A stretch of 64,000 bases of DNA from Bacteroidota bacterium (GTDB lineage: Bacteria > Bacteroidota > Bacteroidia > AKYH767-A > OLB10): the NCBI GenBank assembly GCA_947453935.1, contig CANGJU010000001.1, positions 11,112 to 75,111 on the forward strand, read 5' to 3'. The notes beneath the pieces are model-generated. The model was not told where the DNA came from. It saw nothing but the letters and a program-made list of their open reading frames with translations, and ran no database searches. Position numbers and translations under genes: made by a program. Shown here piece by piece: positions 3,641 through 62,190 of the stretch (positions are counted from its first letter, which is position 1; each line of letters begins with the position of its first letter).

Positions 3641-3668
3641 AAGGACTGAGTAATCAGTCCTTTTTTTA
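3641..3668 (+). terminator. Rho-independent terminator
   Basis: AGGACTGAGTAATCAGTCCT perfect hairpin plus T8. Confidence 0.65.
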
Positions 3669-3814: not shown

Positions 3815-5464
3815 TTATTCCTTCACCCATCGAACGGTTGTGTTGATTTTTTCGTTCTTAATACTGGTGATATACATACCACTTTGCAAGGATTCTATTG
3901 AAAGTGGAAGTGATAAATCGGAGGTAACTATATCACTCATCACCAAACGGCCATCAAGACTGTATGTATTGATAGTATAAGTTGCAGGCGGCAAGCCGCT
4001 AATATCAATATGGTCTTTTGCGGGGTTAGGCCTTACCGTTAGTGATAAATTATTTTGTAGTTGATTGATAGAAGTAGTTGTTGATGAGTACCCTAATTTC
4101 ACTGCCCAAATATCTCTTGCGCCACGACCTGCATCATGTTTCACATTACTAATTCCATCGTTAGCTGTTGCGGTAATAAGTAACGTACTATCATTTAATA
4201 GCATTAATGCCTCGGCAAATTCTGCTTTGTTTGCCCCAATATTTTTATACGTCAACAATGCCCCTGAGGTATCTAAATCCATAACTACAACATCATAGTC
4301 TCCATACCCAGGGTTAAGAAATGTACCATTTGATACGCTCGGAACTGATGCTACTGCAAAAAAACCACCTTGTGCATTTAGTATAACATCCCCAAATTGC
4401 TCCGGCTGTGAAGTCCCATACGTTTTCTCCCAAATTATATTACCACTTGTATCCGTTTTGATAATCCATAAATCTTCTTGATAAAGTGGAATTAGTACAT
4501 TTTCTTTAAATCCAAATAAGTAATAAAAATTATCCTTTTCAATTATTTTCATCAGCCCTGTCCACCCTGTGCAACCGAAACGTTTATCCCAGATTTTATT
4601 TCCATTTTTATCTACTTTAAATACAATAGCCTCAGCAAAACCAGGAGGAGCGATAGGAGAAGAAGCAATATTTCCACCTATTCCACTCTCGGTTAATCCA
4701 TAAACCAAGTAATTACTATCATTCAAAATTATATGTCCTTGATGTACATTGTTATTATAATTATTAGCAGCTCCTTGATCTCTATCCATTCCTCCAAAAA
4801 CTCGATCCCATTGCTTATTCCCTGATGAGTCTAACTTAATCACCCATAGGTCTTTAGCTGCTTGAAATGGGGTTTGAGATGGATAATAGAATGCGTTTTG
4901 AGTTTTATCAAAATCTTGCACGCCATTACTAGTGCCCGATAACAATAGGCCTCCGTCTAAAGTTTGTTCTGCACTACAATATAGATCATCACCAGAAGAA
5001 CCAAATCGTGTTTCATTAATTTTGTTGCCAAGAGTATCAAGAAATAACAGAATATAATCAAACCCCCCTCTTGTTGTTGTAAATAAACTACAAGAAGAAT
5101 CTCCAGTAGTATGCCCTGCAATTAAAAAACCTTGTTTATATGGTATAATGCTATATGCTTGGTCATAGGCTGAAATTGCACCATAATTTTTATCCCATAT
5201 TTTATGAAGGGAATCATCAAAAGCGACAATCCAAATATCTTGAGTAGCACCTGAGATTTCACAGTTTGGCTCTGTTTTATCTTGCTGTGCAGTATAACAT
5301 TTACTAAAACCTACAATTGCATTTAATTGGTTTAGTCGCGCGATGTCACTTCCTTCGTCCATATTAATTGTTCCGAAGCAATGATCATCTATATAGTTAA
5401 ATGATTGGGCATTGGAGTTGGTTTGAATTAAAAATATAATAAATATGATATATAAGTTTTTCAT
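3815..5464 (-). CDS. T9SS C-terminal sorting domain cargo protein with SBBP/beta-propeller-like repeats
   Basis: Signal peptide, repeated SGNKQWDRVFGG / NGNKIWDKRFG / SGNIIWEKTYG motifs, C-terminal Por-secretion tail (...YITSIKNEKINTTVRWVKE). Paralog of 52945-54594. Confidence 0.7.
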   Translation of the reverse strand: MKNLYIIFIIFLIQTNSNAQSFNYIDDHCFGTINMDEGSDIARLNQLNAIVGFSKCYTAQQDKTEPNCEISGATQDIWIVAFDDSLHKIWDKNYGAISAYDQAYSIIPYKQGFLIAGHTTGDSSCSLFTTTRGGFDYILLFLDTLGNKINETRFGSSGDDLYCSAEQTLDGGLLLSGTSNGVQDFDKTQNAFYYPSQTPFQAAKDLWVIKLDSSGNKQWDRVFGGMDRDQGAANNYNNNVHQGHIILNDSNYLVYGLTESGIGGNIASSPIAPPGFAEAIVFKVDKNGNKIWDKRFGCTGWTGLMKIIEKDNFYYLFGFKENVLIPLYQEDLWIIKTDTSGNIIWEKTYGTSQPEQFGDVILNAQGGFFAVASVPSVSNGTFLNPGYGDYDVVVMDLDTSGALLTYKNIGANKAEFAEALMLLNDSTLLITATANDGISNVKHDAGRGARDIWAVKLGYSSTTTSINQLQNNLSLTVRPNPAKDHIDISGLPPATYTINTYSLDGRLVMSDIVTSDLSLPLSIESLQSGMYITSIKNEKINTTVRWVKE

Positions 5465-26626: not shown

Positions 26627-28054
26627 TTATTGTTCTAAATTGTTTTCAGAATTAATTAGTTGTAAAGTATTATCAACTAATTGAACTTTTTGATTAAGCT
26701 TGATTGAATTATTATCGCCTGTAATTATGCTTACATCAATGCCTCTATTCTTGAATTCATCTACGAGCAAGATTATATACTCAAAGCGCGCACTTGCTGA
26801 AGCTCTGGAATTGACTTCCCGATTAAAAGAATCTACTAAGTTCTGAGCATCGCAGCTCGAAAGAATTTTCTTCCATTCATTTCTACGTTTTTCACCTCCA
26901 AAGTCTTTATCGAAATATTCTATTAGCTGGTTAAGTTTCTCAGTATCTAAATTTTCCCATGGGTAATCAAGATTTCCAAAATGTCCGTGAACTGCGGTTG
27001 GACCATAAATCGGACGCTTTAATTGAAGTGCGTTGATTATTCCCTTCGGACTTAAATCAAATACCGACCTAACGGCAAGGGCTAACCGAGAATCTACATG
27101 ATGTAAACTGGTTCCATGGGTATCAACATGAACTGATAATGGTTGATTATGTCCAATAGCATACGATAACTGAATGGTACATTCTTTCGCAAGTCCTGAA
27201 GCAACAATTAATTTTGCAATCCAGCGAGCCATGTACGCTGCTGATCGATCTACTTTACTTGGATCTTTGCCTGAGAATGCGCCACCACCATGCGGACATT
27301 TTCCTCCATACGTATCAACAATAATTTTTCTTCCTGTTAATCCGGTATCTCCATGTGGACCACCAATGGTGAATCTTCCAGAAGGATTAATGAAATATTC
27401 CGTTTCTGATTCTCCTTTGTAGTTTGCAATTACAGGATTAATGATTTCACGAATTATAAATTCGTGTAAAAATTCTTGAGAGATATCGGGAGTGTGCTGT
27501 GCTGAAAAAACTACTTTACTAACTCCTATAGGCGAGTTGAGTTTATAATCGACAGTTACCTGCGATTTTGCATCAGGAAGTAAGAATGGATAGTTGCCAG
27601 TGTCACGTAGCTCCTGATGTTTGCGAATAAGTTCATGTGCAAGATAAATTGGGAGCGGCATAAGGTTCGGACCTTCAGAAGTTGCGTAACCGAACATGAG
27701 TCCTTGATCACCTGCACCACCATCAATAACGCTATCGTTAATCTCTTTACTTTGTTGATGTAAGAGGTTTTGATAGAAGGCCGTTTTCCAATTAAAGCCA
27801 GTTGATGAATCGTTATATCCGATTCGCTCTAACACTTCCTTCGCAATCGCAATTGGATCAACTACAGCAGAGGAGGTGACTTCTCCTGCAATGGTTAAAT
27901 GGTTGGTGGTGATTAAACATTCGCATGCAACTTTTGCATCCGGGTCTTTTGCTAAATAAGCATCTAAGATAGCGTCTGAAATTTGATCAGCCACTTTGTC
28001 TGGGTGTCCTGCCGACACCGATTCGCTTGTGAACGAATGATTGAATAGATTCAT
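26627..28054 (-). CDS. metK: S-adenosylmethionine synthetase with ~85-aa C-terminal extension
   Basis: N-terminus FTSESVSAGHPDKVADQISDAILDA and GGPHGDTGLTGRKIIVDTYGG motif. Core ends near YPWENLD at about residue 370, but the ORF continues to 475 aa. Confidence 0.85.
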   Translation of the reverse strand: MNLFNHSFTSESVSAGHPDKVADQISDAILDAYLAKDPDAKVACECLITTNHLTIAGEVTSSAVVDPIAIAKEVLERIGYNDSSTGFNWKTAFYQNLLHQQSKEINDSVIDGGAGDQGLMFGYATSEGPNLMPLPIYLAHELIRKHQELRDTGNYPFLLPDAKSQVTVDYKLNSPIGVSKVVFSAQHTPDISQEFLHEFIIREIINPVIANYKGESETEYFINPSGRFTIGGPHGDTGLTGRKIIVDTYGGKCPHGGGAFSGKDPSKVDRSAAYMARWIAKLIVASGLAKECTIQLSYAIGHNQPLSVHVDTHGTSLHHVDSRLALAVRSVFDLSPKGIINALQLKRPIYGPTAVHGHFGNLDYPWENLDTEKLNQLIEYFDKDFGGEKRRNEWKKILSSCDAQNLVDSFNREVNSRASASARFEYIILLVDEFKNRGIDVSIITGDNNSIKLNQKVQLVDNTLQLINSENNLEQ

Positions 28055-28139
28055 AGTATGAAAGAATTAAAGATTAATTTCTAACTCAATACATACATCA
28101 AAAAGAAGCGAAGTGGATATCCTGTTATATTTTGACTGA

Positions 28140-28360
28140 ACGTCCACATCGCTTCACCACCGTGGCGCGGATACGCTCGGTTGGTATTATAGTCGGAACT
28201 ATAATTCTTGATGTATTAAAAAATAAAGAACAAATTGTATTCAGCAATTTGTAAATTAAACGAGAGGAGGGAGGGTTTATTGTGCAAAGCGCTTTTTTGA
28301 CTCCTGGTCCGCATCGTTTTACCACCGTTGCATCGTCCGCTCGGTTGGTATCATATTTAC
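28140..28360. repeat. Two copies of a REP-like hairpin element (ACCACCG...CGGTTGGTAT)
   Basis: Copies at ~28156-28190 and ~28320-28354 share conserved stem arms with variable loops and conserved flanks (CGATG-YGGAC...AGTCAAAA on the minus strand). Confidence 0.5.
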
Positions 28361-28470
28361 ATATGATGTCTGAATGATCTGCAAAGTAAAAGCGATTTTT
28401 TTAATTATCCAAATCATTTTTTCTAATTGACCTGTATTGTCGGAAAAATTAAATTGGAATAAATGATTAA

Positions 28471-28917
28471 TCAGGAAAAATACTTTTTATAAAATTCAAT
28501 TTGGTGGGCGACTAATAAATCGTTTAATTCATTTAGCGAATTCTTTTTCTTGTGATGCTGCTCTTGATTTTCAACATAGCGTATTAGTCGTTCTTTTTCT
28601 TTAACTGTATAGGTGAAGGCTCCGTAACCTGATTGCCATCCATTAAATTTTTTGAAGAGCTTTTGTTCTTTGATAAAATGGGTGCTTGATAGTTTAATGT
28701 CTTTTACCAACGCAGCCAAGGAAACGGATGGATGTAGGTCGCATACAATGTGCAGGTGATCTTCAACCCCGTTAACACAATGTGTGAAGCATTTTTTATT
28801 TCGGATTACAGTTGCAATATATGCGAACAATTCTTGGCGTTTATCGGCGCTTAATGTTTTTTCTCTTCGCTTCGTCGCAAAAACTATCTGGTAAATGATT
28901 TGAGTATAGGTCGTCAT
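28471..28917 (-). CDS. tnpA: IS200/IS605-family HUH (Y1) transposase, RAYT-like
   Basis: 148 aa with HuH motif (DHLHIV) and C-terminal catalytic Tyr region (GYGAFTY). Flanked on both sides by hairpin repeat arrays. Confidence 0.65.
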   Translation of the reverse strand: MTTYTQIIYQIVFATKRREKTLSADKRQELFAYIATVIRNKKCFTHCVNGVEDHLHIVCDLHPSVSLAALVKDIKLSSTHFIKEQKLFKKFNGWQSGYGAFTYTVKEKERLIRYVENQEQHHKKKNSLNELNDLLVAHQIEFYKKYFS

Positions 28918-28929
28918 ATAGGTATTTTT

Positions 28930-29290
28930 TATTGAACCGCGTCGCGGTTCGGCGTTGTCGGTTATATGTCTATCGTTAATGTTGGTGAACCGCGTTGCGG
29001 TTCATATCACAACCCCGCCATAATGCGGGGTTGAATAAATGTGGCAAAATGTGGTTTGAAATTTTTATTGTTTTCTATTCATTCATTCGTTTTGTTGACA
29101 ACCCCGCCGCATGGTGGGGTTGAATAACGGTAGCATTAGTTGATTCGAAATATTGTAATTGTATTTTCATCATTTATTGATGACGATCACAACCCCGCCG
29201 ATAGCGGAGTTGAATAATGGTGGTTTAAATGGTTTGAAAAATTTTCATTGATAGCGGTTCATTTATCGGAATGCATAAATAAATCGTACG
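28930..29290. repeat. REP-like hairpin array, including a 3x ~85-bp tandem repeat
   Basis: GAACCGCGTCGCGGTTC at 28934-28950 and GAACCGCGTTGCGGTTC at 28987-29003. CACAACCCCGCC-N6-GCGGGGTTGAATAA units at 29011, 29100 and 29191, each followed by a TGGTTTGAAA-TTTT-ATTG motif. Confidence 0.6.
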
Positions 29291-29402
29291 CAATTTTAGG
29301 AAACAAGAATTATTTATTCGGTTGGTAAATGATTATATCCATTTACAAACGATTAATTAAAAATTGTAGGATAATTATCAATGTCAATCATATCTTTGTA
29401 GG

Positions 29403-30302
29403 ATGCAATTTAGTTTATTAAGCAGGTGTTTAGGACATACAGGTGGTGTGTATGATTTAATTAAAATTTCGGATAGGGAATTTTTATCAGCGTCGGGCGA
29501 TCGATTAGTAGTGTCTTGGAATATTGATAATCCGGAGCATGGAAATCTAATTGCAAGAGCAGCTGATAGTATTTATGCAATCTGTTTTTTGTCGGATACG
29601 AATGAGCTTTTAATTGGACAGGCAAAAGGCGAAATTCATGTCATAGATTTATCGACTAATCAGGAAAAGAAATTATTAAAGATAAATGACAAAGGCGTGT
29701 TTTCTATTTTAGAAAACAAATTGAAAAACAAAATTTACGTTTTAGGTGGTGATGGAGTTTTATCTGTTTTAAATTCAAAAGATTATTCATTGATTGCTAA
29801 AAAGAAGATTTCTACAATGAAGCTTCGTTCTGTTTTGTTTGATGAAGCATCTAACAAACTTTATTTCGGGTGTGGTGAAGGTGTTGTAACTGTTTTTGAT
29901 GATGATTCAATGGAACTGTTATTAAGCAATCAAATTTCTAATAACGGATTTTCAATTAATACAATGATGGATTTTTCGGAAGAACATATTATATGTGGAG
30001 GAAGAGACGCGCATTTACGATGGATACAAAAAGGTGACTTATCAATTGTTGATGCAGTGCCTGCTCATAACTATGCAATCTATAAAATCAGTTTTTCTCC
30101 CGATAAAAATTTATTTGCTACTGCAAGTCGCGATAAAACTTTGAAGATTTGGGACGCAAAAACAAAGCAGATTATTCAGCGCATTGAGCAAGCAAGCGAC
30201 GGACATCTTAATTCAGTAAATACACTTTTATGGATGGATGATCACACTCTTATAAGTGCAGGTGATGATCGTTCAATTAATATCTGGAGAAAAAATAATT
30301 AA
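29403..30302 (+). CDS. WD40-repeat protein
   Basis: Repeated WD motifs (TLKIWDAKT, SINIWRKN), about 7 blades. Confidence 0.7.
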   Translation: MQFSLLSRCLGHTGGVYDLIKISDREFLSASGDRLVVSWNIDNPEHGNLIARAADSIYAICFLSDTNELLIGQAKGEIHVIDLSTNQEKKLLKINDKGVFSILENKLKNKIYVLGGDGVLSVLNSKDYSLIAKKKISTMKLRSVLFDEASNKLYFGCGEGVVTVFDDDSMELLLSNQISNNGFSINTMMDFSEEHIICGGRDAHLRWIQKGDLSIVDAVPAHNYAIYKISFSPDKNLFATASRDKTLKIWDAKTKQIIQRIEQASDGHLNSVNTLLWMDDHTLISAGDDRSINIWRKNN

Positions 30303-31450
30303 GCAGGAATGCTAATCTTTACAGTAGTTCCAATTCCTAATAGCGATTCGAGGGTAATAGTTCCTCCTAATTTTGAAACCATTTCCTTGCAGATATATAA
30401 ACCGAGACCAGTTCCTTCTACGCTGCTTGTTGCTCGATAAAACATATCAAAAATTTTAGGTAGACTTCTTTCGCTTATCCCGATGCCATTATCTTGAATC
30501 GTTATTTCAAGAAATGAATTTTGCTTTGAAACAATTATCTTAACAAAACAATTATCATTATTTGACTTTCTGTATTTTACTGAATTGCTAATAATGTTTT
30601 TCAGTATGGTGGTCAAACGAAATTTATCACTTGAAATAGCAGGAGCAGTATTGAATTCAATATCAAAATTGATGTTTGCTGAGTGTTTTAAGTCCTCTGT
30701 AATCTGCCTTAGTATCACTGCTAAGTCTAAATCTGTATTTTGAATATCAAATCTGGCATTGCGACTATAATCTAAAATTTCAACAATGGAATTATCTAAT
30801 CGATTTATGGAATTAATAATCATTTGTAAAAGTGATATGGTAGATTCGCTTAATTCCTCTCGTTGTTTTATAATATCTATTATGCCGTGAATAGATAATA
30901 ACGGAGAGCGTAAATCGTGCGATACACTGTAAACAAATCTGTCAAGCTCCGCATTTGCTTTTTTGAGTTCATCGTTTTTAGCGGCGAGCATTTCATTTGA
31001 ATGATTCGAATCTTCTACTGCCATTTGCTGTACTCGCAAATTTTGTATCATATCGATAGTCGAATCATGCACAGCAAAATCATTGATCTTTAATCCGAGT
31101 TTTTCAAAATCTTTTTCATTCAAAATCCAAGGTGATCCACAAAAGAGTAATGATTTATTTTCTTCGTGAAAGACAAACTCTCCTTTTAAACGAAACGTAA
31201 ATTCGTTCGATTTGCCTGCTAAAATGAAAATTTGATTTTCATATAATCGAATAGAATCAATTTGATATTTGATGCCAAGGCCGGGGCGTACGAATGAAAA
31301 ATACTTGGTAAAAGGCATACCCACACAATCGTCACCGATTATTTTTTTTAAGCTGTTACCCGCCTCTGTAATTATTAATTCTTGATTAAGAAAAAAGTGA
31401 AATGGGAACAATCTGCTTATTAGTAAATTGCTCTCTTTAGTGCTAATCAT
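30299..31450 (-). CDS. H-NOX-associated sensor histidine kinase (HNOBA-HisKA-HATPase_c), cytoplasmic
   Basis: N-terminal region FRLKGEFVFHEENKSLLFCGSPWILNEKDFEKLGLKINDFAVHDSTIDMIQNL aligns with the sGC HNOBA domain. H-box SHDLRSP. G-box GTGLGL. No TM segments. Confidence 0.8.
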   Translation of the reverse strand: MISTKESNLLISRLFPFHFFLNQELIITEAGNSLKKIIGDDCVGMPFTKYFSFVRPGLGIKYQIDSIRLYENQIFILAGKSNEFTFRLKGEFVFHEENKSLLFCGSPWILNEKDFEKLGLKINDFAVHDSTIDMIQNLRVQQMAVEDSNHSNEMLAAKNDELKKANAELDRFVYSVSHDLRSPLLSIHGIIDIIKQREELSESTISLLQMIINSINRLDNSIVEILDYSRNARFDIQNTDLDLAVILRQITEDLKHSANINFDIEFNTAPAISSDKFRLTTILKNIISNSVKYRKSNNDNCFVKIIVSKQNSFLEITIQDNGIGISERSLPKIFDMFYRATSSVEGTGLGLYICKEMVSKLGGTITLESLLGIGTTVKISIPA

Positions 31451-31995
31451 TGTATAATATCGATTTCAAAAATATCATGCTCATCTCCATTTCTACGATC
31501 AGCTACAAGTGCAACATTAATTGGAGTATTATAAAGTTCACCTAACCCCTGTATAAGTCCGAACATAAAGTCTGTTAGTCCTTGTCTTGTTGAATAATAA
31601 TGCAACATCAGTTTACTAGCAGTCGCTTTTTCAACGATAAATTCCGGCGGTTTAATATCGGAGTAGATAAGCATTACACGGCTATGAAAATTAGGAAGGT
31701 TAACGATAAAGTCGATGAAGTTATCTCCACCAGATTTCATCAACGGCCCATATTTTTCATTGCCTACTTTTATTATCCAGTATTTGCCAAACGTTTTTAA
31801 TACATCGGAAAGTGGGATATCTAATATTTCAGATGCGGATATTGCCAGATTGAATGTGATGCTATCATCGTAAATTTCATTACTTAAAAAAGCCTCTTCT
31901 GCAACACCTGCTTTTTGTTTTATTTTATTCCAATTATCGCTTCCAAAGTTGTCGATAACTAATCCTTGGATGGCTTGATTTACTAAACCGTACAT
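31447..31995 (-). CDS. hnoX: H-NOX (heme-nitric oxide/oxygen binding) domain protein
   Basis: MYGLVNQAIQGLVIDNFGSDNWNKIK...IYDDS closely resembles the sGC beta1 H-NOX N-terminus. Proximal His at residue 104 (NFHSRV). YxSxR motif (HYYSTRQ). 4-nt overlap with the kinase gene. Confidence 0.85.
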   Translation of the reverse strand: MYGLVNQAIQGLVIDNFGSDNWNKIKQKAGVAEEAFLSNEIYDDSITFNLAISASEILDIPLSDVLKTFGKYWIIKVGNEKYGPLMKSGGDNFIDFIVNLPNFHSRVMLIYSDIKPPEFIVEKATASKLMLHYYSTRQGLTDFMFGLIQGLGELYNTPINVALVADRRNGDEHDIFEIDIIQ

Positions 31996-32132
31996 AATAC
32001 TTAATGTTAATTAATTCGGGAAGATAGTAAAATCTAATGTATTTTGTGTATGAAAAAACAAACTGAATAATTCTATTAAGAAATAAAACAATAATGCAAT
32101 AATTACAATAAGATGTTTCATAAATTTGTTTA

Positions 32133-33170
32133 ATGAGAAATCAGCATTTAGATCCTGAAAAAGAAAAAATGAACAGTACGGAAAAAGACATTGAAAAAGT
32201 GTTAAGGCCGGGTGACTTCAGTGATTTTACTGGTCAGGACCTGGTTGTTGAGAATTTGAAAATTTTTGTAAAGGCTGCTGCTCAACGAGGAGAATCACTT
32301 GATCACGTGTTATTGCACGGCCCTCCGGGATTAGGAAAAACGACCTTAGCCTATATCATTTCAAATGAGTTGGGGTCGAATATTAAAACAACTTCAGGAC
32401 CTGTATTAGATAAGCCAGGTGATCTTGCTGGTTTGCTGACTAACCTTGAACCGAATGATGTTTTATTTATTGATGAAATTCATCGATTAAGTCCTGTAGT
32501 GGAAGAGTATTTATACTCTGCCATGGAAGACTTTCGCATTGACATTATGATTGAAAGTGGACCCAATGCACGTTCGGTACAAATTCAATTGAATCCTTTT
32601 ACATTGGTTGGTGCAACTACTCGCTCTGGATTGTTAACGGCGCCATTGCGTGCTCGTTTCGGTATCACGTCACGTTTAGAATACTATGATGCGAAACGAT
32701 TAACATTAATTGTGCAGCGTGCAAGTGAGATATTAAAGATTGAAATTTCGGAAGAAGCAGCGTATGAAATTGCTCGTCGCAGTAGGGGAACTCCTCGTAT
32801 TGCGAATGCATTGCTACGTCGTGTGCGTGACTTTGCACAGATAAAAGGAGATGGGAACATCGATTTAGCAATTGCTCAGTTTTCATTAGAGAAATTGAAT
32901 GTAGATATGTATGGATTAGATGAAATGGATAATCGAATACTTTCATCAATCATTGATAAATTTAAAGGTGGTCCTGTTGGATTAAATACGTTAGCAACAG
33001 CAGTTGGTGAAGAAGGTGGAACGTTGGAGGAGGTGTATGAACCATTCTTGATTATGGAAGGATTTCTGGTGAGAACACCGCGAGGAAGAGAGGTAACGGA
33101 AAAGGCTTACCGTCATTTAGGGAAAAAGTATTTTAAGGATAAGGGAAGTTTATTTGATGATTTAGCGTAA
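32133..33170 (+). CDS. ruvB: Holliday junction branch migration helicase RuvB
   Basis: Walker [10 protein letters not shown]. RuvB N, AAA and C domains over the full length. Confidence 0.9.
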
Positions 33171-33214
33171 GAGTCAAACAAGTAATTTTTGCTTTGATAA
33201 ATTTGCGCCAGGGA

Positions 33215-33305
33215 TAGAAGCGATTTCCTGCGTCAGCAGAAACAAGCGGATAGCCCGGCCATGTAGTGTGCGAGCGCAGCGAGCTCTACTGCATGGAGGC
33301 GCCCA
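33215..33305. other. GC-rich hairpin-forming element in the ruvB-queG spacer
   Basis: CCATGTAG...CTGCATGG 8-bp stem enclosing GCGAGCGCAGCGAGCTC. Local GC above 60% in an AT-rich background. Confidence 0.3.
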
Positions 33306-33338
33306 AAGAAAAAAGAAAAAACAAATTAGAAGTTGTAA

Positions 33339-34247
33339 ATGACAGATATTGCTCAAAAAATTAAAGAGGAGGCCTATCGGCTGGGCTTTGAGCATGTAGG
33401 TTTTTCGAAAGCTGATTTTTTAGAGGAGGAGGCACCGCGATTAGAAAAATGGTTAACGAATAATTACCATGGTAAAATGGCGTACATGGAGAATTGGTTC
33501 GATAAGCGATTAGATCCGCGATTGCTGGTAGACGATGCAAAAACGGTTATCAGTTTACTATTAAATTATTATCCGCCACAATTACAAAATGCAGAGGCTC
33601 CACAGATTTCTAAATATGCATATGGTCGCGATTATCACTATGTGATAAAGGAAAAGTTAAAGGAGTTGTTGCACTTTATACAGGAAAATGTGGGTGAGGT
33701 GAATGGAAGGGCCTTTGTTGATTCTGCTCCAGTTTTAGACAGAGCATGGGCAAAGAAAAGTGGATTGGGTTGGGTTGGAAAGAATGGAAATCTGATTCAT
33801 CCAAAGTCAGGTTCTTTTTATTTTATTGCTGAATTAATTGTTGATTTGCCCTTACCAACGGATGCGCCTATCCGCGATTATTGCGGAACGTGTACCAGGT
33901 GTATTGATGCTTGTCCGACTCAAGCGATTATATCTCCGAAAGTAGTCGACGGTAGTAAATGCATTTCGTATTTTACTATTGAATTAAAAGAGCATATTCC
34001 TGCTTCGTATAGAGGGCAATTTGATAATTGGGCTTTTGGTTGTGATACCTGTCAGGATGTTTGTCCGTGGAATCGTTTTTCGAAACCTACGAAGGAAAAA
34101 GATTTTATTCCTGATGACAATCGATTAGCGTGGTCGCGCAGTGAATGGGAAGAGATTACGGAAGAAGTTTTTAAAAAAGTATTTAAAGATTCTCCGCTTA
34201 GTCGTTCGGGATTTGAAAAAATAAAAGACAATTTAAAATTGCTTTAG
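33339..34247 (+). CDS. queG: tRNA epoxyqueuosine(34) reductase
   Basis: Two 4Fe-4S cysteine clusters ([25 protein letters not shown]). DUF1730 plus ferredoxin-like domain. Confidence 0.85.
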
Positions 34248-34347
34248 TGCTGAAATAAATAGGTTGTTATACTTTAATAAAATGTTGATACGCTTCCTTC
34301 GACTACGCTCAGGAAGCTAGGGTCTGTTATAGTTTACATTAAAATGA

Positions 34348-34539
34348 TTATCGCACTACCTGCTTAAATGCCTGCATGATGATAGTACTATATCGATCCT
34401 GAAAAGTGGCGAGGCACCAGATCATTAATAATTTTCGTTCATCAGCAGTAAGCCATTTGATAGCTTTCATTAGTTCCTTACGGAATAGTTCTCTGTCAAA
34501 ACTAACTTTCGTTAAAATCTCTTTTGAATATTCAAACAT
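34348..34539 (-). CDS. Small hypothetical protein (63 aa)
   Basis: ORF only. Weak call. Confidence 0.3.
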   Translation of the reverse strand: MFEYSKEILTKVSFDRELFRKELMKAIKWLTADERKLLMIWCLATFQDRYSTIIMQAFKQVVR

Positions 34540-34630
34540 AGGAGCTTGTTTTAAGTGATATTCAAATTTAAATAATCAGGAATTAAAAAAACGAATTATT
34601 TTTAAATTTCTTGCATCAATTTTACAAAAA

Positions 34631-35194
34631 TTATTCGCTCCAGCGATAAGTGTCTTGTGTTAAACCTATTTGATCAATTATTCTATCCACGACTGTAGCT
34701 GCTAAATCTTCAAACGATTGAGGTTTACTATAAAACGATGGTGCTGCTGGCAAGATAATACCTCCTGCAAGAGTAACAGTTCGCATGTTGTCGATATGAA
34801 TTAAACTCAAAGGAGTATCTCTTGTTACTAGGATTAATTTTCTTCGCTCTTTTAAAATTACATCTGCTGCTCGTGTGGTTAAGTCGTTGCTGATTCCCGT
34901 TGCAATTCGAGCCATTGTTCCCATTGAGCAAGGACAAACAACCATTGAATCATACTTTGCGGAGCCAGATGCAAATGGAGCAAAGAAATCATTCTTATTA
35001 TAAATTTTAAAAGGCAGGTTGTCATATGAAGTGTCGCCTAGTTCGAACTTCCAAACATCTTTTGCATTATCGCTCATTACAATTCCTACTGCATCTATTT
35101 GATCTTGCAAGACAACTAGTTTGTCTAAAAGTACTTTCGCATAAATGGATCCGCTAGCACCTGTAATAGCTACGATTATTTTTTTCTTATTCAC
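34631..35194 (-). CDS. ubiX: Flavin prenyltransferase UbiX
   Basis: KKIIVAITGASGSIYAKVLLDKL flavoprotein N-terminus. 187 aa. Confidence 0.85.
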   Translation of the reverse strand: MNKKKIIVAITGASGSIYAKVLLDKLVVLQDQIDAVGIVMSDNAKDVWKFELGDTSYDNLPFKIYNKNDFFAPFASGSAKYDSMVVCPCSMGTMARIATGISNDLTTRAADVILKERRKLILVTRDTPLSLIHIDNMRTVTLAGGIILPAAPSFYSKPQSFEDLAATVVDRIIDQIGLTQDTYRWSE

Positions 35195-35813
35195 TTTTTT
35201 CTGTTTTATTTCCGAATGATTTAACCAAGGTAAAAGTAATAACAGAATTATACTGCCCTTTGTTTAAATAATAGGTTTCTCCTGAGCCATGCTCTCGAAT
35301 TGGTAATAGTGATTGAAGGTATCCAAATTCAAAATTCCAAGAGTTAGAGAAGGGAAATCCGAGTGCTCCCGCAAGGCTAATATCTACAGGAGAAAATTTA
35401 CTTCTATTTCCTAATGGTCCGTCTTGATCTTCTTCTTTTGATGAAATTAAATAGCCGATTGATGGCCCAGCGCGGAGATATAATTTACGGCTTAATGAAA
35501 AATCGTAGCTTACGGTTGACTCGATATAATTGAGACGCATGAGATAAGTAGATGGGTCGCCTTGATCTAGTTTACTTGGCTTGCGACTACCTTTTTGTAA
35601 GTAATAAAGTTGCAGACTTATAGCAGAGGTTGCTTTTATAGGGTAAGTTACGCCTAGTCCGAAGAGGGCAGTCCCTTTATTAAACCCCGAAAGCTCGTCT
35701 CCCGATACTTGACTACCAGCTGCTCCAAGGAATAATTTAGCTTTAAAATTTTGCGCTTTTAGGGATGTTAAAAAGAATATAAATAGAAGTCCTAGAATGT
35801 ATTTTAATTTCAT
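35187..35813 (-). CDS. Outer-membrane beta-barrel (porin-like) protein
   Basis: Signal peptide MKLKYILGLLFIFFLTSLKAQ. Amphipathic beta strands. 8-nt overlap with ubiX. Confidence 0.5.
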   Translation of the reverse strand: MKLKYILGLLFIFFLTSLKAQNFKAKLFLGAAGSQVSGDELSGFNKGTALFGLGVTYPIKATSAISLQLYYLQKGSRKPSKLDQGDPSTYLMRLNYIESTVSYDFSLSRKLYLRAGPSIGYLISSKEEDQDGPLGNRSKFSPVDISLAGALGFPFSNSWNFEFGYLQSLLPIREHGSGETYYLNKGQYNSVITFTLVKSFGNKTEKSE

Positions 35814-35935
35814 GAATTCACTTGTATTTTGCTCTGTAAAGGAACGAAAATAAATAATCGTCCGAAATAGTTGTTCACAAAGTTTAATAATTGAGATAAT
35901 ATTTATATCTTACATGGCTAATCGAAAAAAAGAGC

Positions 35936-36313
35936 ATGTTGGCTATGTATCTTAAACGCGGAATTTTTGTTTTGTTTTTCATGATGAGTTGTAAACTTAT
36001 GAGTGCTCAAAGTACGAATCAGTTTTATTCAATTGTTGTGGAGGTACCTTCTTTTTCAGAAGGAAAGACGATTCAAGTATGGAAAGATGCTTTAGTAACA
36101 TTAGACGGTGTTAAGCTTGAGAAATATTGTCCTGCACAAGGATGGTTAGTCCTTTCAGTTGATAATTCAATTATTCCTACATCAACAGATCCAGAAACTA
36201 TCTTACGTAATGCGAATTTGCAAGGGATAATAAAGTATGGTGCTACTGGGGCACAGGTTGAAGCGAATTGTCATGGAGAATTGAAATATCTTAACAAACG
36301 AATATATCATTAG
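35936..36313 (+). CDS. Hypothetical secreted protein
   Basis: 125 aa with signal peptide. Immediately upstream of the 1473-aa gene. Confidence 0.4.
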   Translation: MLAMYLKRGIFVLFFMMSCKLMSAQSTNQFYSIVVEVPSFSEGKTIQVWKDALVTLDGVKLEKYCPAQGWLVLSVDNSIIPTSTDPETILRNANLQGIIKYGATGAQVEANCHGELKYLNKRIYH

Positions 36314-36319
36314 AAGATT

Positions 36320-39300
36320 ATGAAATATTTTTTACGAACAATATTATTTATAATCTTAACAACTGCAAGTTTTTTTGCACATGCCCAATGTTCAGGGGGT
36401 GTTGCAAAAGGAAGTATAGTTCCAACCGCCAGTTGGCAATCATTAAATACCACGAACATTGATGGTAATGGATATTGGACTTTTGCAGCCACTGCTGGAT
36501 TTAAATATTATTTTTCATTTTGTACAGCGGACGGAGGCTCTTCAACTTATGATACTCAAATAACTATTCTTGATAATTTGGGTGCTGCTGTTGCAGGCGG
36601 ATATAATGATGATTTTTGTGGCACACAGTCGTATGTGGCATGGACATGCGTAACCGCTGGGACCTATCGTGTATTAGTAACAAAATTTAGTTGCGCAGGG
36701 CAAGTAGGTCTAGGAACCTTTGTATATAAATCTGGCGCACCATTATCTTGTCCTAATAATATGGGCGGTGGTGTAGTAACGGTACCGTCTTTACCCTATA
36801 GTGCGGGTGCAGGTACTACTTGCGGAGCAGGAAATGATTTAACAAGTTCAAATATTATTTCGTGTGGGACGGGTTATTATTTTGATGGCGAAGATCGTGT
36901 TTGGATTTTTACTCCTACAGCTACGGGTACCGTAACAATAAATTTAACTTCATCAGGGACATACACCTGCCTTGCGCTATATGACGGTTGTCCTTTACTC
37001 GGACAAGGTGGTGTTTGCTTACAGGTTACGCAATCGTCGTCAGGTAATAAAACAATTACAGCATGCCTATCTGCTAATAAAGCGTATTATTTGATTTTAG
37101 ATTCATGGCCTAGCCCTACCTGCAACGCCTATACGAACTTGACTATTTCAGCGCCAGTAACTGGAAATGGTTGCTCTTTGGGAACAGGTGTGAATGCAAT
37201 TACTTTACCTTATACAAGTGCTGGTCGTACAACATGTGGTAAAGTAGATGATATTACTTCTTCTAATACTATTGCATGTGGAAGTTCATTGTATTATACT
37301 GGCGAAGATGAGGTGTTTACTTTTACGCCTGCTTTGAGTGGAAATATTTCAATTGCGCTTACTTCTTCGGGTTCTTATACTGGAATTACTTTGTATGATG
37401 GTTGTCCGTTAACATCGAGTTGCTCAGGAACAGGTGGTGCATGTGTTGCTTTCGAACAAAGTTCAACAGGAAGCAAATCGTTGTGCGCAAATGTAACAGC
37501 TGGAAAAACATATTACTTAATTATCGATTCTTGGGCCTCGCCTGCTTGTAATCCTTATTCAATATCTATCACAGCACCAACAGGTATTTTACCAGGAGCA
37601 ACTTGTGCTTCTTCTGTTGCTGTGACGGCTTTACCATTTACAAGAACTGGTGAGTCTACAGCATGTTTAGGAAATGAATATACAAATGCATCAACTGGAT
37701 CGTGCGGAACATTTTATGAATCAGGAGAAGATAAAGTTTATTCCTATGTTGCTACTGGTCCTGAATGTTTAAGTATTACACTTTCAGGTGCAAGTACTAA
37801 TTCTATCGGATTTCAAGTTTACCAAGGTTGTCCCGGAGTTGTAGGAACTACTTGTATAGGCAACGCTGGTGGTGCTAACTCGGGTACTTTAACCGGGAGT
37901 ATTACTTTACCAAGTGCTGGAACATATTATATTGTTGTTGATACATGGGCGAGTCCTACGAACGCACAATATAATATTTCTATTTCCTCATTCGGACAAG
38001 GAGCGAGTAACGATTTACCTTGTAATGCTACTCCGTTGGTATTAGGAATTCCTCTCAACGGAGCCAATAATTGTTCAAGTGGAGCATCGGAGCCTTCAGC
38101 ACCTGCATGCTGGCTTACACCAAATAATTTAAATACTGTATGGTATTCAGCGGTGGCACCTGCAAGCGGACAAATGCGCGTGCGCGTTATTCCTAATTCA
38201 TTAACTAATCCACAGGTAGCAATTTATTCTGGTGTTTGCGGTACGGCAATGACGTTAGTAGGGTGTAATGATGATGGTACTCCTTGCGGAACTACTACTA
38301 ACTATAGTTCAGATGTAACGATGGCAGGTTTAACTGCTGGTGCAACGTATTACATCGTTGTTGATGGTTATAGCGCTGACGTAGGTACGTATTCGGTAAT
38401 GGCTGTTGATGCATCGATTCCTTTAACTCCGTTGAATAACGGTCAGGATTGTGGTACCTATTTGCCAGTATGTGATACTACAATGAGTTTTGGTGATCCA
38501 GGCTTTCAAAGTTTTGGAAATATTTGCGATTTCCCTGGTGGTGGAACAAACTGTTTATTATCTGGAGAAAGAAGTACTGTTTGGTTTGAAATTCCAATTT
38601 TAGCGAATGGAAGTATTGAATTTTCTATCGTGCCGAAAGATTGGGCTGGTGCTCCAAGCACTGTTTGTACCGATTATGATTTTGCAGTTTGGAAAACAGC
38701 AGGAACAGGATCAGTAACATGTGCTCAAATTGCAACCGGTGCAACACCTGTTAGTTGTAATTATAATTTTTTAGGTGTAACTGGATGTTTCAGTGCAGCT
38801 GCTGGTGTTTCTCCAAATGCATATCCAGGTTTTGGTGGTTCGTTTAATGCAGGTATTCCTGTTGTAGCAGGTGAAAAATATGTATTAGTAGTAAGTAATT
38901 TTACTAATAGCACAAGCGGATTTGATATTATTTTTAGTAATGTTTCTCCTGTTAATTATGCAGCGACAGGAACACGGTCTAACTGGTCTGGTGGTATAGA
39001 TACCGATTGGTTTAAGTCGGACAACTGGGGTGGTTGTCCTGTACCTAATTGTACCAAGGATGCCATTATCCCTGGTGGTATTGTTAATCAGCCAACAATT
39101 TCTCCTCTTCTTGCAAGTTGTAAATCAATTGTAATAAATCCAGGAGCAACATTAACAATGAGCGCTGGTTCAACGCTTGCAGTTTGTGAAAACTTCACTA
39201 ACTATGGTTCTTTATCTGCATCAACAACATCAACATTATTATTGTCTAATGCTGCAGTGAATCAGAACTTAGATGGAAACTTATTAGCACCAAATGCTTT

Positions 39301-62158: not shown

Positions 62159-62190
62159 AAGGTCTTATTACAAAATAAGGCCTTTTTTTT
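62159..62190 (+). terminator. Rho-independent terminator
   Basis: AAGGTCTTATTACAAAATAAGGCCTT plus T8. Confidence 0.7.

Follow-up and report, generated by a model that had tools for sequence, protein, structure and literature searches.

The stretch of DNA analyzed here (the window) is 64,000 nucleotides of contig CANGJU010000001.1 from a Bacteroidota bacterium (GCA_947453935.1). It contains a gene for a Y1 HUH protein of 148 amino acids on the minus strand (28471-28917), and the subject of this analysis is that gene together with the hairpins near it. Upstream of the gene, which is to its right on the forward strand, lie two palindromes and an array of three tandem units that each contain a hairpin. 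On the other side lie two elements in the leader of metK, the gene for S-adenosylmethionine (SAM) synthetase. A preliminary description had read the locus as a REP-associated tyrosine transposase (RAYT) set between two arrays of repetitive extragenic palindromic (REP) hairpins. Of this reading, the association of the Y1 gene with the right-hand hairpins was retained, whereas the left array, membership among the RAYTs, and dispersal of the repeats were not.

The open reading frame (ORF) at 28471-28917 matches the Pfam family Y1_Tnp with an E-value of 2.9e-21. Both the HuH motif and the catalytic tyrosine motif noticed at the outset are present, the former as EDH54LH56IV and the latter as Y114-VEN-Q118-EQHH. 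In an alignment with 39 homologues, residues H54, H56, W94, Q95, Y114, Q118, and H122 are invariant and H121 is nearly so. The protein scores 60.8 bits with the NCBIfam model of IS200/IS605 transposases (NF033573, cut-off 55) and only 28.3 bits with REP_Tyr_transpos (NF047646, cut-off 80). PDB searches, run with the single sequence and with a 40-member family profile, matched only structures of IS200/IS605 TnpA. The best relatives by family profile were IS608 TnpA (E = 1e-7) and ISDra2 (E = 2e-7), and E. coli TnpA-REP went unmatched in both searches even at E ≤ 10.

TnpA_Y1 subclass 1.2 was defined in a survey of Y1 HUH proteins (Quentin et al., 2018, BMC Genomics 19:475; PMC6006769). Its members are found in Cyanobacteria and Bacteroidetes, have a median length of 148 amino acids, and carry a HuH motif of the form DH[IV]H, a WQ pair, the motif Y---Q--HH, and a specific C-terminal tail. 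They are present at a mean of 1.7 copies per genome and are mutually only 36% identical. Moreover, the subclass is listed as 'REP: no' and is said to 'not share IS properties', IS standing for insertion sequence, while the signature of class-2 RAYTs is Y---NP (PMC6006769). Compared with Table 1 of the survey, the ORF agrees with subclass 1.2 wherever the features could be checked (148 amino acids, DHLH, GWQ, YVENQEQHH), an assignment by motifs and length and not by the authors' hidden Markov model of the subclass. A protein database yielded 978 homologues, nearly all of them exactly 148 amino acids long and about 60% identical, and those with names are labelled Bacteroidota. As judged from its sequence, the ORF is predicted to encode an intact Y1 HUH protein of class 1, subclass 1.2, and not a class-2 RAYT. 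The earlier RAYT assignment was given up because the motif is Y---Q--HH rather than Y---NP, the REP_Tyr_transpos score falls far below its cut-off, and the structural relatives are IS200/IS605 TnpA proteins only.

The two palindromes closest to the gene are GAACCGCGTCGCGGTTC (28934-28950, minus strand) and GAACCGCGTTGCGGTTC (28987-29003, minus strand), and their presence bears out the two cruciform-type palindromes of the preliminary description. Together they give 4 strand matches against 0.02 expected. Read on the gene strand, the proximal one is GAACCGC-GAC-GCGGTTC with the tail AATAAAA, and the second is GAACCGC-AAC-GCGGTTC with the degenerate tail ACCAAC. They can pair with each other as a long inverted repeat (I2, 89% complementary), and the minimum-energy fold of the single-stranded DNA (ssDNA) pairs them in this way. 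Beyond them ACAACCCCGCC occurs three times (29009, 29098, and 29189; 0.27 expected), each copy opening a direct tandem unit. Unit 1 (29009-29097, plus strand, 89 bp) has the hairpin CAACCCCGC-CATAAT-GCGGGGTTG with the tail AATAA, which is inverted relative to the Y1 gene and followed by an AT-rich spacer; its repeats fall into the direct repeat families D1-D3. Unit 2 (29098-29188, plus strand, 91 bp) is 74% identical to unit 1 and has one G-T mismatch in its hairpin. The most degenerate is unit 3 (29189-29277, plus strand, right end approximate), which opens with an exact ACAACCCCGCC at 29189, has the hairpin CAACCCCGC-CGATA-GCGGAGTTG, and matches repeat family D2 in its spacer at 29239-29266.

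The array stem is AACCCCGC/GCGGGGTT with a loop of 5-6 nt and with stem mismatches in units 2 and 3. The three units opened by the ACAACCCCGCC...GGGGTTGAATAA copies are pairwise only 71-75% identical; the number of copies had been given correctly before, and the period is 89-91 bp rather than about 85 bp. Similarly, the pattern AACCCCGCC-N6-GCGGGGTT, in which the hairpins had first been described, has no match as written because its spacing is off by one, and finds the three copies after correction. As ssDNA, the region 28918-29290 folds with a z of -6.1 relative to shuffled sequence. No Rfam family fits the hairpin modules of the window and of seven homologous loci, and scans of the array with promoter and terminator consensus sequences gave nothing above shuffle expectation. 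A weak match to MIR7729 (29159-29239) was regarded as chance, as it reaches 20 bits against a gathering score of 92.

The wider family places these hairpins in context. Eighty metagenomic loci with homologues were fetched and their flanks read, of which 74 are non-redundant. In most of them the flanks contain a module with a short GC stem, an AA..TT foot, a mostly GAA-type loop, and the 3' tail (G/C)AA(T/C)A, for example GAATAA. Upstream modules are on the gene strand, with tails such as GAATAAA, and between the end of the proximal stem and the ATG there are 11-20 nt (mode 15). On the downstream side the module appears as its reverse complement (for example TTCAACCACTTCGTGGTTG), and its stem begins 4-9 nt past the stop codon. 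In the family, inverted modules are therefore present on both sides of the gene, with their tails pointing at it.

A covariance model, R1, was built from 64 modules taken only from other genomes. It gave 329 matches at E ≤ 0.05 in the 74 non-redundant loci, 70 of which have at least one, and the counts of position and orientation refer to the 300 matches listed. Among these, there are 10.5 modules per kb at up to 100 bp from the gene, compared with 6 modules in 184 kb at a distance of 1-4 kb, a difference of about 300-fold. Within 100 bp upstream, 78 of the matches listed are on the gene strand and none on the opposite strand; within 100 bp downstream, the opposite strand has 71 of them and the gene strand 4. 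The inverted upstream orientation is a minority (29 of the 147 upstream matches listed), yet it is seen in other loci too.

When R1 was run over the 64-kb window with filters off, its top four matches were the proximal palindrome (28924-28954, minus strand, 31.3 bits, E = 3e-6), unit 1 (29006-29043, plus strand, 25.9 bits, E = 1.3e-4), unit 2 (29095-29132, plus strand, 21.4 bits, E = 0.003), and the second palindrome (28977-29007, minus strand, 15.9 bits, E = 0.11), so that the palindromes are on the gene strand and the units on the opposite one. Unit 3 was matched at 29186-29222 (plus strand, 10.7 bits, E = 3.9), and there was no credible match in the window outside the palindromes and the array. 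Because a model trained on other genomes only ranks them at the top, the window hairpins are considered members of the family module. The proximal palindrome, whose stem ends 16 nt ahead of the ATG, has the position and orientation that are canonical for the family. A downstream module is absent from the window, both by R1 search and by direct reading. This lineage has lost the downstream side, keeps two modules at the canonical upstream place, and has three inverted ones in the tandem array. On these sequence grounds the right-hand hairpins can be linked to the Y1 gene as its family flank modules. The link made in the preliminary description is thereby upheld, by the ranking of the window matches and by family flanks that are inverted as REPs are around a RAYT. 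The locus represents a somewhat degenerate, one-sided example of a family-wide pattern. After the Y1 stop codon (28383-28470, minus strand), the sequence TAATCATTTATTCCAATTT was observed, which resembles the TTATTCAACC leader of the family downstream module and is without a hairpin. This sequence may be what is left of the missing downstream end, which would now be joined to the promoter region of metK.

The gene itself has the marks of long-term maintenance. Its ratio of nonsynonymous to synonymous divergence (dN/dS) is 0.069 relative to L013, a metagenomic locus with an 80% identical protein (dS ~1.7), and 0.096 relative to L004, a contig from a metagenome-assembled genome (MAG) (dS 0.375). 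Neighboring genes have similar values (0.05-0.14). Relatives with a protein at least 90% identical were looked up and 24 contigs read (P0131); the same synteny is found in all 24, and in L013, L004, and L093-L095. Where two genes exceed 90% nucleotide identity, their flanks are shared too, at an identity that is similar or lower, and no near-identical pair in differing contexts was found among the homologous loci compared. The exact protein sequence was found at one place only. The preliminary description had suggested looking for other tnpA copies, and tblastn finds no second Y1 gene in the window. These comparisons of sequence indicate that the Y1 gene is under purifying selection, vertically inherited, and probably functional, and there is no sign of recent transposition.

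This evidence bears on two explanations in which the locus is an insertion sequence. In the first, which the preliminary description had kept as its fallback, a single IS200/IS605-type insertion has decayed and the hairpins are its leftover ends. The presence of hairpins on one gene side only, with the family-typical downstream modules missing, the degeneracy of the three units (71-75% identical), and the NCBIfam name of IS200/IS605 transposase would all suit such a history. However, the ORF is intact with all catalytic residues, and several species have the gene at this very locus with a dN/dS of 0.07-0.10 (dS from 0.4 to above 1.3), which argues strongly against it. Long arrays with 95% homogeneity in relatives point to ongoing turnover, and the inverted family ends are unlike the same-strand left-end and right-end hairpins of IS200/IS605. 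Because of the purifying selection, the shared synteny, and the single intact copy, a decaying element was set aside as very improbable. In the second explanation, the family is a real but rarely moving insertion sequence with inverted hairpin modules as its ends, and the window copy is one-ended and immobilized. The gene and its inverted modules do form a compact unit of about 0.7 kb, and the homologues occur in many differing gene contexts. Nevertheless, no near-identical genes were found in different contexts, the reported mean of 1.7 copies per genome at only 36% identity does not suggest such an element (Quentin et al.; PMC6006769), and selection on the gene went on after its downstream end was lost. 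A rarely moving insertion sequence was judged improbable.

The array is specific to the locus and variable in copy number. The window has 3 diverged units, compared with 6-7 or more in strains with a protein at least 90% identical. The array of L094 comprises 6.2 units (91 bp, 95% identity); in L093, about 7 hairpins are present; and in L095, there are at least 6 units before the contig end cuts the array. A related MAG, CALQOD01, has at least 7 plus 2 units. L013 has the same synteny without the 90-bp array, and four hairpins about 50 bp apart are found there. Elsewhere in the family the arrays have periods of about 33, 50, and 68 bp, the last being found in L071. At L043 (3527-4780), there are 13 and 7 copies of a ~33-bp module on the two sides of the gene. 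A repeated CCATCGGTGCAACCGATGG hairpin was also observed downstream of the gene in L017 (~4460-4600).

Although variable in place, the hairpins show no dispersal through the DNA that was analyzed. Neither exact patterns nor R1 revealed a further copy in the 64-kb window. The two sites at 35677 and 58729, each one mismatch away from GGGGTTGAATAA, lack a hairpin, and the calls of a hairpin-plus-tail scanner at 3641-3662 and 62159-62184 (both minus strand) and at a few other places occur at about the shuffle rate, are not listed by the covariance model, and are regarded as unrelated. A 19-base degenerate hairpin pattern was then scanned through one genome for each of 185,579 species (GTDB). It returned 11 stretches, nine of them single matches in unrelated phyla, about as many as chance was estimated to give. 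The remaining two come from the ends of CALQOD01 contigs and represent the two sides of the same syntenic locus (metK, riboswitches, Y1 gene, array, and WD40 gene), the assembly breaking inside the longer array. CALQOD01 is labelled Chitinophaga pinensis, a label that looks doubtful because the G+C content of the window is only about 35%. Cognate clusters more than 1 kb from the gene were found in two loci only, L019 and L074. The one in L019 (1184-1935) is without a gene of its own and is located 2-2.8 kb from the Y1 gene.

In a true REP/RAYT system, the hairpins would be REPs scattered between genes in tens to hundreds of copies, and the ORF would be the RAYT that mobilizes them. The count of tens to hundreds, which the preliminary description had expected genome-wide, was not borne out: the hairpins were found only at this locus in 64 kb and in CALQOD01, and the family loci have 6 modules in 184 kb at 1-4 kb. 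The genome scan in fact recovered one MAG's copy of the syntenic locus. Moreover, the protein has the class-1 motif Y---Q--HH, its REP_Tyr_transpos score of 28.3 is far from 80, E. coli TnpA-REP is not among its matches at E ≤ 10, the GT[AG]G foot of REPs is lacking, and the supposed REPs on the left are riboswitches. Some features of the family do recall such a system, namely a low-copy Y1 gene with inverted hairpins to either side, as in the E. coli REPtron, gene-less cognate hairpin clusters 1.9-2.8 kb away at two loci (L019 and L074), and the label 'RayT' given to many homologues by JGI. A REP/RAYT system in the strict sense nevertheless appears quite improbable here.

Comparison with characterized systems shows where the locus stands. 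Like subclass 1.2 as surveyed (PMC6006769), it has a protein of 148 amino acids with DHuH, WQ, Y---Q--HH, and a conserved C-terminal tail, a host among the Bacteroidetes, low copy number, and behavior unlike that of an insertion sequence. It differs in that a subclass listed as 'REP: no' is accompanied by inverted hairpin modules, often amplified in tandem, in 70 of 74 homologous loci. With the REPtron (E. coli TnpA-REP and its REPs and bacterial interspersed mosaic elements, BIMEs), it shares a low-copy, vertically inherited Y1 gene, inverted hairpins that are presumed substrates, and clusters in both orientations. However, the REPtron protein belongs to class 2 and the present one to class 1. 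The 5' GT[AG]G foot is replaced by feet of the form (C/G)AAC.. and by the conserved 3' tail (G/C)AA(T/C)A, and the hairpins remain within about 1 kb of the gene, amplified in tandem and without genome-wide dispersal. The inverted layout on both sides is present in the family, while in the window the hairpins are on the upstream side only, in both orientations. The IS200/IS605 TnpA proteins (IS608, ISDra2), which are enzymes that recognize hairpins in ssDNA, have the HUH motif and the Y---Q catalytic helix in common with the Y1 protein. The ends of IS200/IS605 carry their hairpins on one and the same strand, and these elements are mobile and present in multiple copies, whereas the locus described here has inverted modules and a syntenic gene in single copy, and lacks one of its ends. 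Because the modules are inverted and not on the same strand, the layout of the locus is nearer to the REPtron than to an IS200/IS605 element. The subclass 1.2-type protein is IS200-like by sequence and not IS-like in behavior.

With confidence only slightly above even, it is proposed that a domesticated Y1 nuclease has been kept beside substrate hairpins that amplify locally. Both IS608 TnpA and E. coli TnpA-REP recognize hairpins in ssDNA and cleave at a short sequence nearby (background in PMC6006769). By analogy with these two enzymes, the Y1 protein might bind hairpins extruded from ssDNA, for example at replication forks. Binding would be on the strand carrying the 3' tail, with cutting and rejoining at the conserved tail, and CAACCCCGCCATAATGCGGGGTTGAATAAATG and GAACCGCGACGCGGTTCAATAAAAA are candidate ssDNA substrates consisting of hairpin plus tail. 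Joining between equivalent sites of adjacent modules could add or delete whole units, which would give rise to arrays and to differences between strains, while the Y1 gene itself would stay put. In DNA, C-GAA-G loops such as that of the d(GCGAAGC) mini-hairpin are unusually stable, and this stability fits a single-stranded DNA substrate.

Several points weigh against this proposal. Hairpin binding and cleavage by subclass 1.2 is presumed from IS608 TnpA and E. coli TnpA-REP, and replication slippage or unequal recombination could alter array length without any enzyme. Both the scanner and the covariance model were derived from hairpins near the gene, so the statistics of structure are partly circular, although the bias in position and orientation is not. 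The DNA behind the finding of non-dispersal comprises 64 kb, a single fragmented MAG from a related species, and the flanks of homologues. Finally, the hairpins proximal to the gene fall within its presumed 5' and 3' untranslated regions (UTRs). On the sense strand their loops are GAA/GAAA upstream and UUCG downstream. C(UUCG)G is a very stable loop in RNA, and with this loop on the downstream sense strand a role at the RNA level is possible.

This last point leads to an alternative in which the hairpins function as RNA or simply as DNA structures (stabilizers, attenuators, or terminators for the mRNA of the Y1 gene and of its neighbors), slippage drives the arrays, and the enzyme has a different substrate. 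It would account for the fixed distances of the hairpins from start and stop codons, for the sense-strand loops, and for the location of arrays in a divergent promoter region. On the other hand, the modules lack U-tracts and have no match in Rfam, and arrays of up to 13 copies as well as gene-less clusters are hard to fit as UTR elements. Moreover, the symmetric inverted layout, with the tail on opposite strands, has the look of a recognition site specific to a DNA strand. The RNA or structural explanation was therefore judged unlikely.

The domesticated-nuclease proposal can be extended to the family as a whole. Subclass 1.2 would then form the core of a Bacteroidota-wide 'local REPtron', in which inverted GAA-loop hairpins are expanded and contracted in place, giving strain-variable arrays with periods of 33-91 bp that could switch neighboring promoters by copy number. 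If so, the promoters switched in the window would be those of the divergent WD40 gene and of the Y1 gene itself. This extension is offered tentatively and is rather doubtful.

No description of hairpins with subclass 1.2, or of Bacteroidetes REPs of this type, was found in a limited literature search that included PMC6006769, which suggests that the association of a subclass 1.2 gene with hairpin modules is new. Given that the survey defining the subclass reports no hairpins (PMC6006769), a module beside nearly every homologue provides concrete candidate substrates. Amplification that is local rather than genome-wide would represent an intermediate state between mobile IS200 elements and RAYTs that spread REPs. 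There is also a warning for annotation, as subclass 1.2-type genes should not be annotated as active transposases, nor riboswitch cores as REPs.

The latter confusion concerns the left-hand elements. Both ACCACCG...CGGTTGGTAT elements of the preliminary description exist, but they are not REPs. An Rfam search identified them as the conserved cores of two SAM-I/IV aptamers (RF01725). The aptamer closer to metK (28118-28219, minus strand) scores 51.5 bits (E = 1.3e-6) against a gathering score of 41.1. The distal one (28283-28382, minus strand) is matched over its full length at 40.2 bits (E = 4e-4), slightly below the gathering score. An orthologous doublet is found in the metK leader of L013 (53.7 and 42.9 bits, the latter being the counterpart of the distal aptamer), and a doublet before metK is visible in L004 too. 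The left elements are two tandem SAM-I/IV riboswitches that control metK and are unrelated to the Y1 gene, and the pair shuts off metK at high SAM. By eye, a possible terminator consisting of a hairpin and a T-run was seen after the first aptamer (ACAAATTG..CAATTTGT-TCTTTATTTTTT) and another after the second (GAAGCGATGTGGA..TCCACTTCGCTTC-TTTTT).

Tandem riboswitches for the same ligand have been reviewed, and the review counts 164 double SAM-I and 44 double SAM-II examples and reads such doubles as pseudo-cooperative, giving a steeper response (Sherlock et al., 2022, RNA Biol 19:1059; PMC9481103). The metK leader is similar in having two complete SAM aptamers in series. It differs in that both are SAM-I/IV, whereas the passages of the review consulted here mention SAM-II followed by SAM-I/IV and no SAM-I/IV doublet (PMC9481103). 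A description of a double SAM-I/IV riboswitch was not found in a limited literature search. The controlled gene, metK (26627-28054, minus strand), is a neighbor of the Y1 system and not a component of it, and its product has three S-AdoMet_synt Pfam domains (E-values of 1e-37 to 1e-62). Its 475 residues extend past the last of these domains, which stop at residue 367. The C-terminal stretch of about 108 amino acids (26627-26950, minus strand) is not matched by any Pfam family, and nowhere else in the gene do relatives differ so much (50-60% nucleotide identity).

Similarity to relatives changes along this region. Window and L004 are 90-100% identical over the segment that runs from the array, by way of the Y1 gene and the riboswitches, into the 5' portion of metK (29180 to ~27850). 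Past a breakpoint at about 27600-27850, in the rest of metK and outside it, L004 shares 85-90% identity with L013 and only 50-80% with the window. Such a mosaic points to recombination among related lineages or to a MAG contig that is chimeric. Transfer of the Y1 gene alone had been considered from its discordant dS relative to L004 (0.375, compared with 1.16 for metK) and was rejected, as the breakpoint inside metK explains the difference.

Other observations concern the window and its surroundings. GC skew is weakly positive over most of the window, and leading and lagging strands cannot be confidently assigned from it. On the far side of the array, a gene for a bacterial WD40 beta-propeller (29403-30302, plus strand) adjoins a pair of genes at 30299-31995 (minus strand). 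The pair overlaps by 4 bp and encodes an H-NOX (HNOB) sensor and an HNOBA-HisKA-HATPase histidine kinase, which looks like a gas-sensing two-component pair. All three genes are syntenic in L013 and L093. Finally, an 11.6-kb metagenome contig (L001, from the Logan assembly of SRR9214416) is 100% identical to 27329-38917 of the window, and therefore the same strain is present in SRR9214416.

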